The notes under the pieces: model-generated
Seen by the model: the letters and a program-made list of their open reading frames with translations, nothing else
Databases searched by the model: none
Told to the model about the DNA's origin: nothing
In this document: positions 47,860 through 49,560 of the stretch, in pieces
How positions within the stretch are numbered: position 1 is the first letter of the stretch
How the letters are laid out: the number at the start of each line of letters is the position of its first letter
Sequence record: OM630585.1
Reading direction: 5' to 3' (one strand)
Origin: Escherichia phage vB_EcoM_LNA6
DNA length: 64,000 bases
Translations under genes and position numbers: made by a program

Positions 47860-49560
47860 ACGGGGCTAAATAGCCCAGATACCTTTATACAGCCCCTTAA
47901 ATGGGGCTTTTTGCATCCTATCGAATCCTTATACAATCCCTTTCCCTTTCCTTTCTAGAATCTTATCAGACCTTAAAAAGCAATAACTTTACAGCCTTTT
48001 ACTAAGTCAATTAATTGGCCTTATTAATAAGCCCTTAAACATAAGCCAATAACCCCAGAAAGGGGGCAACCCATTTAAACGCCATATAAAGCCCTATAAC
48101 GGCCTTTTTAACCTAACTTAAGGGATTGCATTACCTCACCCTAAAAAGCCCTTTATAAAGCTTCCCAGAGACTTAAAAGAATCTTATAAGGGTGTAAGCT
48201 TTATTATCTCGTTAGCTATCTTGTGAACTACTAAACAACCCCCCTTGATAGTAACTGAAAAGTATGTTATAGGGGCTTTAAAGTTACTTTGAAGTAGCTT
48301 AAAAGTTACGTAAATGCTAGCCCCCTTAACATTTTCTTAACAATTTCTTAACAATCCCTACATAGTTATGCTTTTAAGACACTTGTTAGCAACTTGTTAG
48401 CCCCTTGTTAAATCTCTGTTAAGACCACGTAAAAGCCTTGTAAGAACCTTTGACATAGCCTTTAAAGCCCTGTAAAGCCCTATAAAGAGCTATCTGTACA
48501 GTTGGGGGGTAAATACTAGGAAGAGACTTAAAAGAGCTTACAAGGAGCTATAGAGGGCTTTTAAGAGGTATGTTTAAAGAATCACTAAGAAGCAAAGGGA
48601 ACGATAAGAAAAGAGTAGTGACCATGTTAATAGCTTGTTAAAAAGATTAAACACTTGTTAGGAACTTGTTAATTATCTTAACAAAATAACTCTTTAAAAT
48701 TAACTTGTTAGCTCTTGTTAGTCATCTGTTAAGCATCTGTAAAGACTATTCAGCACTTGTTAAGAAACTGTTACACCCTTGTTAGTTCTGTTAAGAAACT
48801 GTTAAGACCTTTGAAGAGTTGTTAAGAAGATGTTAGAACTGTTAAGAGATTGTTAAGGATATTTTAAAATTTTGCAAAGTACTTGTAAGGGAGTTGTTAA
48901 GGGCTACCAAGCAGATATACATCTTCTACAGATATTTTTCAGTTCCTTCAAAGACCCTAAAAAATGACTTGATAGTCCTATTTTATAAAAATTTTAAAAT
49001 TCTGAATAATTACCTATACAGTCTTTTAAAAATACAGGTAGAAACAGGCTTATAAGATACCTTGTTAGTACCGTGTTAGACCTTGTGAGATAAGGTCTGT
49101 GAAGATATTCCTGTTAAGTTTGTTAAAACAGTCTATATAGAGGCTTAGTAATACCTAGTGAACACCTATAGAGGGTATCATAGCTGACATAATGGGTTAC
49201 TGTTAAGTAACACAGATAACCTAGAGATTAAGAGGTGTATAGGAGCTTCTAAGAGGGTATAGAGAGATGGTTAAGGTGACTGTATAGGTTGTTAAGAAGG
49301 TTTGTTAGAAGAGTGTTTAGAAGGCTTGTTAGAGGGCTTGTTAGAAGGCTTGTTAGAAGGGCTATACAGAGGGCTATTAAGACCACTAGATAGTTACTAA
49401 GATACTATATAGTACTATATAACTATATAGAGAGTAAGATTAAGAAGGCTGTTAAGAAGGATAGATATTTTATTCACATATGATGGTGACCCAGAGGTTG
49501 GGACAACCGATAAAATTTTATAAAAATTAAAAAGCCCCCAATTAAGGAGGCTCTTAAGAT
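47860..49560. repeat. 1.7 kb ORF-free region dense in short direct repeats
   Basis: Many copies of CTTGTTAG / CTGTTAAGA, a 4x tandem GGCTTGTTAGAAG near 49300-49360, AAAGCCCT-n-TAAAG motifs and ACTATATA repeats; no ORF of 60 aa or more on either strand. Confidence 0.7.
47891..47912 (+). terminator. intrinsic terminator ending early array
   Basis: agccccTTAAATggggct + TTTTT. Confidence 0.55.

Follow-up and report, generated by a model that had tools for sequence, protein, structure and literature searches.

What is the segment at positions 47860–49560 of the Escherichia phage vB_EcoM_LNA6 sequence (OM630585.1) for? The window analysed was the whole 64,000-nucleotide stretch of this record, and all coordinates refer to it. 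A sequence-only reading had described the segment as free of genes, densely filled with short direct repeats and placed at a point of convergent transcription. The roles offered for it included a genome terminus with terminal repeats, a binding-site array for a phage or host protein, and a replication origin.

No ORF of 60 aa or more was found in 47860–49560 on either strand, the longest being of 53 aa, as had been claimed. The convergence of transcription was also confirmed. The last plus-strand gene before the region (47603–47851) and the last minus-strand gene beside it (49564–50115) are each followed by an intrinsic terminator, and the annotation of relatives shows the same layout. The terminators are:

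47891–47908, plus strand: intrinsic terminator, stem-loop AGCCCCTTAAATGGGGCT followed by a T run, closing the plus-strand array.
49530–49555, minus strand: intrinsic terminator, stem of 10 pairs (5 of them G-C) and then a T run, closing the minus-strand block.

Certain GenBank records annotate one to three 'hypothetical proteins' in this region, which would fit small proteins or a non-coding RNA overlooked by annotation. Such a product is highly improbable. The small ORFs are not conserved: six of 30–53 aa were intact in just 1–12 of 23 relatives, with indels that are not multiples of three. An Rfam scan of 47400–49900 at a permissive threshold returned three sub-threshold chance matches (19.6–26 bits, against gathering thresholds of 55–90), and a tRNA scan of the region returned none. 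Sigma-70 promoter-like sites were at chance level (12 found; 8.7 ± 2.6 expected), and the terminators face inward on both sides.

The source of the window is a Felixounavirus, a Felix O1-like myovirus. The segment 47860–49560 matched 255 phage records, and at least 80% of its length was covered in 163 of them. All except one of the 255 are labelled as Escherichia, Salmonella, Shigella, Citrobacter or 'Enterobacteria' phages, as Felixounavirus, or plainly as 'Phage'. The lone record with a different label is Staphylococcus phage SA1.

Terminal repeats have been described before in this genus. In the paper on the Felix O1 genome, short terminal repeats were inferred from the genome size and were not located. 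The repeat of UAB_Phi87 was determined as 608 bp by Bal31 digestion and run-off sequencing (PMC4837284) and that of Pr103Blw as 581 bp by PhageTerm (PMC8303462); the terminases of Felix O1-like phages form a direct terminal repeat (DTR) cluster of their own (PMC4837284). These reports of DTRs in the genus give lengths and sequences only (PMC4837284; PMC8303462).

The ends of LNA6 were placed by homology to the mapped ends of relatives. The 581-bp DTR of Pr103Blw, identical at both ends of its record, aligned to 48320–48908 with 92% identity, and the annotated 618-bp DTR of UAB_69 aligned to 48318–48910 with 86% identity. The start is accordingly at 48318 from the UAB_69 annotation or 48320 from the Pr103Blw PhageTerm result, and the right end at 48910 or 48908 from the respective alignments, and this 2-nt disagreement counts against the reading. 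In the MET-P1-301 record a repeat of 544 bp stands at each end and falls inside 48318–48908. The proposed genome terminus with terminal repeats was supported, the determined DTRs of relatives mapping to 48318/20–48908/10:

48318–48908: direct terminal repeat, present as a single collapsed copy, predicted length 591 bp, ± 2 nt at each end.

The DTRs of relatives matched the window at a single place, which counts against the reading; on this reading one copy of the repeat is seen because the sequence was written with the two genome ends joined. Untranslated DNA flanks the repeat over 400 bp on the left and 650 bp on the right, and the terminators insulate it from the neighbouring genes. The 'DTR' of KMM2 was rejected as a guide to the ends: the record has identical ends of 64 bp, but these fall within the true repeat region and resemble an assembly overlap rather than physical ends. 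The BPS15Q2 record begins about 14 nt to the left of the boundary, without a repeat at its other end, and this is weak support.

Three short sequence marks were found at the boundaries of the repeat:

48318–48331, plus strand: left boundary box TAGCCCCCTTAACA, at the start of the DTR.
48893–48906, minus strand: right boundary box, reading TAGCCCTTAACA on the minus strand, the inverted partner of the left box.
48909–48921, plus strand: right signature AAGCAGATATACA, lying directly beyond the right boundary of the repeat.

The pattern TAGCCC(N0-2)TTAACA has only two occurrences in the 64 kb (both strands searched), in inverted orientation and one at each repeat boundary. The left box was identical in 22 of 23 relatives, the exception (L020) having a single substitution (TAACCCC), and the right-box core TGTTAAGGGCTACC was invariant across the 23. 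The right signature has a single occurrence in the window, starting at 48909; the first 45 kb of the distant Erwinia phage phiEa21-4 also contain one copy, in the corresponding position. The first 12 bases of the signature were present once per region in 27 of 27 sequences examined. The boundary marks were conserved in 24 felixounaviruses. Mooglevirus, Suspvirus and phiEa21-4 share the right signature, and the left box is present, with variation, in KMM2, SUSP1 and phiEa21-4: TTTACA replaces TTAACA in Mooglevirus, Suspvirus and phiEa21-4, and phiEa21-4 also has TAGCCAC. The GGGCTA part of the right box is retained in Mooglevirus and Suspvirus and missing in phiEa21-4. Outside the boxes the two boundaries are asymmetric, which counts against the reading. 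A third box-like site, TGTTAGAAGGGCTA at 49353–49366, was discarded; it lies within a variable tandem array and lacks conservation, with GGGCTA and GGGTTA alternating.

Measured repeat lengths can be predicted from the conserved boundary marks. The span between left box and right signature was 583 bp in Pr103Blw and 616 bp in both UAB_69 and UAB_Phi87, for reported repeats of 581, 618 and 608 bp, respectively. The GenBank record of UAB_Phi87 is not opened at the physical ends, and the box-to-signature length was used instead; the reported repeat is 8 nt below this length, which counts against the agreement. A sequence rule (from TAGCC(C/A)C..TT(A/T)ACA to AAGCAGATATACA) allows the terminal repeat of any subfamily member to be predicted without reads; for phiEa21-4 the predicted length is 441 bp.

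The short repeats are not the terminal repeat itself; they are located within the 591-bp repeat and next to it. At least 25 copies of the main motif had been claimed, and 35 TGTTAR hexamers (31 on the plus strand, 4 on the minus strand) were counted in 47860–49560, against about 2 expected. The plus-strand expectation was 2.06 ± 1.41, with a maximum of 7 in 1000 dinucleotide-preserving shuffles, and the density elsewhere in the window was 0.84 per kb per strand. The sequence CTTGTTAG has 10 copies in the region and none in the rest of the window, and CTGTTAAG has 8 against 3. The consensus of the array is CTTGTTARGAA. Spacings between neighbours were exactly 11 nt in 13 of 34 cases, the others including 9–13, 20–22 and 31 nt, and the best global period was 10.4 nt (Rayleigh R = 0.50).

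The placement of the array follows the mapped ends. The leftmost 460 bp (47860–48319) contain no TGTTAR, the first element being at 48326; the array begins 6 nt inside the left boundary, spans the repeat (24 elements within 48318–48908) and continues for about 550 bp past it. The outermost copies at each boundary are oriented outwards. Its parts are:

48325–48355, minus strand: three inverted TGTTAA elements, 11-bp unit CTTAACAATTT in 2.8 copies, pointing to the left end.
48384–48422, plus strand: four TGTTAR elements at 48384, 48395, 48406 and 48417, with exact 11-bp spacing.
48430–48620: central part of the repeat, without TGTTAR, carrying a second motif family (TAAAGCCCT, TAAAGAGCT, ATAGAGGGCT).
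48625–48900: main TGTTAR run, 16 on the plus strand and one inverted at 48678, ending with TTGTTAAGGGCTA at the right boundary.
49063–49126, plus strand: four more TGTTAR elements, outside the repeat, at 49063, 49074, 49112 and 49121.

The number of inverted units at the left end varied from 2 to 5 among relatives, always in 11-bp steps. In the central part the array is interrupted by a gap of 208 nt, and an imperfect inverted repeat is found there (48460–48478/48547–48565). Spacings in the main run were 9–11, 20–22, 28, 31 and 44 nt.

The rest of the region comprises four further elements:

47915–48317: left flank, no TGTTAR on either strand, with AAAGCCCT/TAAAG-type motifs; the least conserved part.
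48909–49150: most conserved non-coding segment (conservation 0.95–0.99).
49289–49360, plus strand: 12-bp tandem array TTGTTAGAAGGC, 5.9 copies, 81% match.
49403–49431, plus strand: ACTATATAG-type short tandem repeat, period 8–10, about 3 copies.

A fourfold tandem repeat had been described in the sequence-only reading. The tandem array is real and corresponds to 49289–49360, but its unit is of 12 bp and is present in 5.9 copies, three of them exact GGCTTGTTAGA. The TAAAG-type and other repeats that had been listed were also recovered: AAAGCCCT occurs 4 times, with enrichment in the left flank, and the ACTATATAG-type repeat at 49403–49431 is conserved in KMM2 and SUSP1 as well. In the virion the left flank is predicted to form a unique, non-coding stretch immediately internal to the terminal-repeat copy at the right end. 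For the segment 48909–49150, possible roles are those of packaging signal, promoter and DNA-unwinding element.

A comparison with related phages had been proposed as a check, and it showed the region to be conserved, with the marks in 23 relatives. Mean conservation was 0.91 in the DTR, against 0.76 in the adjoining 82-aa gene, and 0.79 in the left flank, where it falls to 0.49 at 48000–48049. The value for the 12-bp array was 0.42, owing to indels; the array had 2 to 6 units among 24 sequences, the most being in the LNA6 window. This part of the array varies freely in copy number; some of the elements must therefore be dispensable, which counts against the reading. Such shifts among relatives, in steps of 11 and 12 bp, would be expected if the repeats had no function and were slippage-prone filler between convergent transcription units, with the cut sites alone mattering. 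The pattern of motif, spacing and orientation is, however, maintained across four genera, and phiEa21-4, which falls outside the blastn and tblastn matches to the region and its flanking gene, shares mainly the motif, the spacing and the boundary marks. Moreover, motif positions are better conserved than spacers (0.974 vs. 0.933) and the non-coding region better than adjacent genes; in Mooglevirus the non-coding DNA is 68–72% identical and the adjoining 183-aa protein only about 53%. Functionless filler is very unlikely on these grounds.

The identity of the repeat with mapped DTRs, the marks at its boundaries, the phased spacing and the conservation are observations. From this sequence evidence, 47860–49560 is likely to be the genome-end or concatemer-junction region of the phage, made up of a DTR, boundary marks that would guide the cuts and a putative protein-binding array of TGTTAR elements.

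The repeats could alternatively be the iterons of an initiator, with the region being or containing a phage replication origin and the stretch at about 48958–49037 serving as the unwinding element. Direct repeats are numerous, in helical phase and beside this AT-rich stretch, which lies in the highly conserved segment. With 81% A+T the stretch ranks second in AT content among the 80-bp windows of the 64 kb. The cumulative GC skew also peaks locally near 46–48 kb. The turn in skew falls at the switch of coding strand, however, which is a sufficient explanation alone, and an equally AT-rich stretch is found at the divergent strand switch near 10.3 kb. DnaA-like sites numbered 23 in the window against 20 expected, with one (1 mismatch) in the region. 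Among PHROG families the flanking proteins matched only ones of unknown function; they matched no Pfam family, and none has an initiator domain. An origin also does not predict that the array starts exactly at the mapped genome end and is bounded by end marks. We regard an origin as unlikely. Iteron origins and parC-like centromeres do resemble the region in their direct-repeat arrays with a phasing of about 11 bp, and origins also in an adjacent AT-rich segment; LNA6 differs from the former in having no adjoining initiator gene or enrichment of DnaA boxes and in an array anchored to mapped genome ends. A parC-like partition centromere was rejected, there being no partition genes alongside and the relatives being virulent myoviruses.

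For the genome-end reading, the manner of cutting, the binding of protein and the nature of the binder are what we infer, as follows. Guided by the boundary marks, the packaging nuclease would cut or nick one strand at one boundary and the opposite strand at the other, and the terminal repeat would then be duplicated through strand-displacement synthesis, as in the T7 model. The TGTTAR elements, spaced one helical turn apart and nearly all on one strand, would form an array of protein-binding sites, in agreement with the array suggested earlier for a phage or host protein. The protein bound to the array would build a nucleoprotein complex on the terminal DNA, either to mark the junction for packaging or to organise the ends. 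A packaging site is a reasonable inference from the genome-terminus reading. The binder has two candidates, a phage packaging protein (a small-terminase-like ring) and ArcA-P of the host. The ten largest ORFs of the window include no terminase, a point against the reading, and no small terminase was identified for this phage group in the records examined. The IHF consensus WATCARNNNNTTR, looked for because himA and himD matter for FelixO1, is absent from the region.

An ArcA site consists of direct repeats with a TGTTA core, 11 bp from centre to centre, mostly 3–5 repeats at 11 or 22 bp (PMC3798270; PMC4173790). The layout of the phage array matches this, with 14 exact TGTTA-N6-TGTTA pairs. 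An 18-bp ArcA model was built from 115 of 128 published ArcA boxes; the authors of the published-box model used cut-offs of 9–10 bits for bound regions and 15 bits for genome scans. In 48320–49560 there were 19 boxes at 10 bits or more and 8 at 15 bits or more, the maximum being 22.7 bits. The 8 stronger boxes compare with 0.06 expected and with 2 in the other 62.8 kb, both strands. The boxes at the left end, TTGTTAAGAAAATGTTAA (22.7 bits) and TTGTTAAGAAATTGTTAA (22.5 bits), exceed the best box of the training set (21.5 bits), the probability of a score of at least 22.5 being 4e-8 per position. The boxes within 48384–48422 scored 11.9, 10.6 and 17.9 bits, and those of the main run scored 14.1–17.9 bits (48624, 48655, 48715, 48757, 48788, 48819, 48839 and 48850). 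Each of 24 felixounaviruses had 6–10 boxes of at least 15 bits, KMM2 and SUSP1 had 8 each (maximum 20.5 bits), and phiEa21-4 reached 20.4 bits; the hosts are all Enterobacterales.

These scores are consistent with binding of the TGTTA array by host ArcA-P, replacing or joining a phage protein, which we consider possible but doubtful. ArcA-P may then act as an architectural factor at the ends, couple the phage cycle to redox state, or be titrated off host promoters. Circumstantial support comes from an anaerobic ribonucleotide reductase carried by the phage and from a genome-wide screen in which Salmonella with a disrupted arcB was fitter against FelixO1 (PMC8744999); the arcB effect was, however, common to the unrelated phage Aji_GE. 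The match to ArcA also depends on the TGTTA core and the spacing. Non-core bases of the 14 exact pairs averaged −1.9 bits, as expected from composition (−1.8), and only the boxes at 48326 (+5.8) and 48337 (+5.5) have a positive non-core contribution and are ArcA-like throughout. G follows TGTTA in 13 of 31 copies and C precedes it in 8 of 31, both being disfavoured by ArcA. There is no promoter or gene here to regulate, and T7, which has the same host, carries analogous arrays with a different motif. It also counts against ArcA that the routine cultures of Felix O1-like phages are aerobic, a condition under which ArcA-P is low. A phage packaging protein is an equally plausible binder, because the spacer bases are mostly not ArcA-like. 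A tblastn search with an approximate ArcA sequence gave no match to a phage-coded homologue in the 64 kb available of about 87 kb, and no paper tying ArcA to these phages was found in the literature searched.

ArcA-P sites on the E. coli chromosome have 2–5 repeats over promoters, with A/T-rich spacers, whereas the phage has about 35 over 1.1 kb, with spacers that are not so, the left end excepted. Still more tentatively, the terminal repeats of the Ounavirinae might form the largest known natural array of ArcA-P sites (about 35 TGTTA per genome end region), recruiting or titrating ArcA-P, with near-consensus boxes just inside the left genome-end boundary and weaker copies at the other. If so, ArcA-P would be an architectural or sensing factor in end processing or packaging; alternatively, replicating phage DNA would absorb ArcA-P and, in a gut poor in oxygen, lead to derepression of the genes for respiration and the TCA cycle. 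In both cases a virulent phage would be exploiting a two-component response regulator in a way that is new. If the ArcA reading holds, a host regulator that senses oxygen would be tied to the DNA ends of phages in wide use for typing and biocontrol, with a possible effect on how they perform in the anaerobic gut.

For annotators, the predicted placement of the genome ends is a guide to the true ends of this genome. Most of the 255 related records begin at an arbitrary position, and in some of them spurious small genes are annotated in this region. No prior description of the boundary boxes, of the phased TGTTA array or of its ArcA-like layout was found in the literature searched. How junctions are recognised and repeats duplicated in phages with exact terminal repeats is still modelled only on T7 and T3, and the inverted box at both boundaries and the dense phased array offer handles for mutation and footprinting.

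The closest known systems are the DTRs of other felixounaviruses (UAB_Phi87, Pr103Blw and UAB_69), which are homologous, with 86–92% identity and boundaries within 2 nt, and occupy the same site between the plus-strand array of small genes and the minus-strand block. T7, a precedent for the present reading, likewise has an exact terminal repeat that is short and occurs once per concatemer junction, and an array of short motifs on the same strand (SRL/SRR) inside and just after the repeat; its first 360 bp contain 11 CTAAAG and 3 ATAAAG, 3 of them within the 160-bp repeat. The nick-and-displace model of repeat duplication comes from the T7 and T3 literature. The likeness is one of analogy, not homology: the T7 array motif, CCTAAAG, has no sequence similarity to TGTTAR, the T7 repeat is of 160 bp against 591 bp here, and LNA6 is a myovirus and no relative of T7. 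Strict 11-bp phasing and inverted boundary boxes set LNA6 apart from T7, which has early promoters at its left end, whereas transcription converges on the ends in LNA6. Repeated short protein-binding elements in helical phase near a packaging cut are also known from the R sites of lambda cosB and the pacL/pacR boxes of SPP1. Those systems have few sites (3–7) and cohesive or headful ends, whereas LNA6 has tens of sites and exact direct terminal repeats.

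At 47860-49560 the ORFs of both strands all fell short of 60 aa (the longest was of 53 aa), and the region was dense in short direct repeats, both as described in the sequence-only reading. The core shared by these repeats, TGTTAR, was counted 35 times, + strand copies outnumbering - strand copies by 31 to 4; its background in the rest of the window was 0.84 per kb per strand, and the shuffled region gave 2.06 +/- 1.41 copies on the + strand, with a maximum of 7 (1000 dinucleotide-preserving shuffles). CTTGTTAG was found in 10 copies within the region and in none elsewhere in the 64 kb. 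Neighbouring elements were spaced by exactly 11 nt in 13 of 34 cases and mostly by 9-13, 20-22 or 31 nt in the remainder, and the best global period of the array was 10.4 nt; the elements therefore lie on one helix face. A tandem array first read as fourfold was present, but with a different copy number, a 12-bp unit being repeated 5.9 times at 49289-49360. Convergent transcription onto the region, also proposed earlier, was upheld by inward-facing terminators on both strands:

47891-47908, + strand, terminator closing onto the region from the left
49555-49530, - strand, terminator closing onto the region from the right

A second motif family (TAAAGCCCT, TAAAGAGCT and ATAGAGGGCT), similar to halves of the phage's own terminator hairpins, was present in both orientations at 48430-48620 and 48075-48165, with an imperfect inverted repeat at 48460-48478/48547-48565. 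The small ORFs of the region were not conserved in the relatives compared, and no RNA family match was found for it. Small 'hypothetical proteins' are annotated inside the terminal region of relatives (e.g. UAB_69 gp027 and gp028; FM4b; Sl26); these ORFs are not conserved, and their presence in the GenBank records is probably over-annotation.

Matches to the region came from 255 phage records, and in 163 of these they spanned at least 80% of it. Their labels named phages of Escherichia, Salmonella, Shigella, Citrobacter or 'Enterobacteria', Felixounavirus, or plain 'Phage', with Staphylococcus phage SA1 as the single exception. All records that were opened came from Felixounavirus and sister genera, and the stretch was unannotated in them or carried a 'repeat_region' or a few doubtful 'hypothetical proteins'. 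Contigs of Salmonella phages FSL SP-010, SP-012 and SP-107 stop at ~47555-47580, ~280-310 bp left of the region and near the terminator after ORF 46993-47523; this shared stop may be an assembly break.

For UAB_Phi87, Bal31 digestion and run-off sequencing gave direct terminal repeats (DTRs) 608 bp long (PMC4837284); 581-bp repeats were reported for Pr103Blw by PhageTerm (PMC8303462) and short DTRs for UAB_69 (PMC11350853), and in the original Felix O1 paper short repeats were only inferred, from genome size (PMC3185647). The record of Pr103Blw starts and stops at the phage's ends, and the identical 581-bp repeats found there were aligned to 48320-48908 of the window. The annotated 618-bp DTR of UAB_69 was aligned to 48318-48910; the MET-P1-301 record carries a 544-bp repeat at both its ends, inside that interval, and several other records start no more than ~30 nt from 48320. 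A physical genome terminus with terminal repeats, one of the roles suggested for the region at the outset, is thus supported, the DTRs of relatives aligning at 48318/20-48908/10 inside it. Since the repeat is present as one copy, the window has the form of the junction seen in a concatemer or circularised assembly. The terminal repeat of this genus was already known, and the window is a further member. The 64-bp identical record ends of the Citrobacter phage KMM2 (Mooglevirus; OP902295) were taken as DTRs by its authors, who called the genome 'complete'; these ends fall inside the homologue of the true terminal repeat and look like an assembly overlap.

Each repeat boundary was marked by one of two mutually inverted boxes, the only 2 matches to TAGCCC.{0,2}TTAACA in the window when both strands were searched:

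starting at 48318, + strand, left boundary box, at the left repeat boundary
ending at 48906, - strand, right boundary box, at the right repeat boundary

Both boxes were kept in the 23 aligned relatives, L020 alone having one substitution, in the left box. The right signature, AAGCAGATATACA, occurred once in the window and starts at 48909, the first base beyond the repeat. The distance from left box to signature was 583 bp in Pr103Blw and 616 bp in both UAB_69 and UAB_Phi87, for reported repeats of 581, 618 and 608 bp, respectively; the marks therefore follow the differences in repeat length from phage to phage. By these marks the repeat of the window is predicted to be of 591 bp (48318-48908). 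The signature was retained in KMM2, in SUSP1 (Suspvirus) and in the distant Erwinia phage phiEa21-4, which was not among the blastn or tblastn matches to the region and its flanking gene. In the left box of all three, TTTACA replaces TTAACA, and phiEa21-4 also has TAGCCAC; GGGCTA, from the right box, is present in KMM2 and SUSP1 and absent from phiEa21-4. A repeat of 441 bp is predicted for phiEa21-4 by the same marks.

The first TGTTAR of the region is at 48326, 6 nt within the terminal repeat, and the 460 bp at the left of the region have none; 24 copies fall inside the repeat and 11 in the adjoining 650 bp on the right. Because the first three copies from the left are inverted, the outermost elements at each boundary face outwards, followed by GGG(GG)CTA and then by the end. 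The predicted repeat of phiEa21-4 has 7 inverted copies in its left part and direct copies in its right part. Its left flank (16600-16920) carries another motif (9 copies of CTTCTAA and 12 of TTCTAA, often spaced by 12 nt), and the left-flank motif is therefore lineage-specific and the TGTTA motif conserved; TGTTAAGA is shared by phiEa21-4 and the window. Among relatives, the left-end 11-bp unit varied from 2 to 5 copies and the 12-bp array from 2 to 6; units are always gained or lost whole, and phase is thereby preserved.

Averaged across 23 relatives, identity to the window was 0.76 for the final + strand gene (82 aa), 0.79 for the left flank, 0.91 for the terminal repeat and 0.95-0.99 for 48900-49150.

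Conservation was 0.974 at motif positions versus 0.933 in spacers (Mann-Whitney p = 0.003; the sites are not independent). In Mooglevirus the non-coding DNA was 68-72% identical, as against ~53% for the adjacent 183-aa protein. A conserved 81% A+T stretch (48958-49037) adjoins the arrays, as might be found in a phage replication origin; this reading is improbable, since no initiator gene lies beside the region, DnaA boxes are not enriched, the GC-skew turn falls at the coding-strand switch and the start of the array at a mapped end is not explained by an origin. Among 80-bp windows, the one at 10331 has the highest A+T of the 64 kb (82%); it lies in a stretch (~10200-10850) at a divergent strand switch and the minimum of cumulative GC skew; this stretch could be an early promoter region or origin. 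Elsewhere, 26 tRNA genes are clustered at 58323-63555 (+ strand), and a 24-bp tandem repeat (50180-50246, 2.8 copies) lies within the small minus-strand ORF 50169-50393.

We infer that the region acts in cis in end formation and packaging. A junction with a single repeat copy would have to give two ends with the repeat on each. In the T7-type model, nicks are made in opposite strands at the two boundaries, and strand displacement copies the repeat. The inverted boxes are compatible with this model, and in relatives the 5' end of either strand falls 0-4 nt upstream of TAGCCC, as it predicts. The phased, single-orientation TGTTA array is best read as a putative protein-binding array that would build a complex on the terminal DNA.

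Two binders are viable, a phage packaging protein (e.g. a small-terminase ring touching successive direct repeats) and host ArcA-P. Sites for the latter have a TGTTA core in direct repeats 11 bp centre-to-centre, with additional repeats at 11 or 22 bp (PMC3798270, PMC4173790), and the array has exactly this layout of core and 11-bp direct repeats. With an 18-bp ArcA model from 115 published boxes, 8 matches of at least 15 bits were obtained at 48320-49560 (0.06 expected) and just 2 in the other 62.8 kb. Those two boxes that adjoin the left end of the repeat scored 22.7 and 22.5 bits (top training box, 21.5 bits), and ArcA-type boxes were retained in all 24 felixounaviruses and three other genera. 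However, the non-core bases of the 14 exact pairs averaged -1.9 bits, the base-composition expectation; only the left-end boxes are ArcA-like along their whole length, and the phage consensus CTTGTTARGAA includes bases disfavoured by ArcA. The region also has no promoter to regulate, and T7, with the same host, employs a different motif. In a screen of Salmonella, cells with arcB disrupted were resistant to FelixO1 but also to an unrelated phage (PMC8744999), so that this sole genetic hint for ArcA is non-specific; no paper connecting ArcA with these phages was found. The match in layout and score, together with its limits, thus leaves the binder between a phage packaging protein and ArcA-P. 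The near-consensus left-end boxes would very probably be bound by ArcA-P in vitro.

Away from the terminal region, the ArcA model reached 15 bits in 2 matches only (16.7 and 15.1 bits); these belong to three TGTTA-type repeats with 11-bp spacing, ATGTTTCCAAAATGTTGAACTAGTGTTAC, at 51792-51820 (+ strand), within the first part of minus-strand ORF 51272-51853. At + strand loci 19746-23363, 23853-25052 and 31614-33395, taken together, the phage also encodes an anaerobic ribonucleotide reductase (NrdD-like), aerobic NrdA/NrdB and a nicotinamide phosphoribosyltransferase, a set consistent with growth in oxygen-poor hosts.

No description was found in the searchable literature of the inverted boxes at the boundaries, the conserved signature on the right, the rule by which the repeat is predicted in four genera, the phased array with its anchoring to genome ends or the agreement of that array with ArcA site layout; these are put forward as sequence-level findings and hypotheses. 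In T7, 11 CTAAAG and 3 ATAAAG are present on one strand of the first 360 bp; the 160-bp repeat contains 3 of these, and the others follow just beyond it. The likeness of that array to the TGTTA array is one of analogy, not homology.
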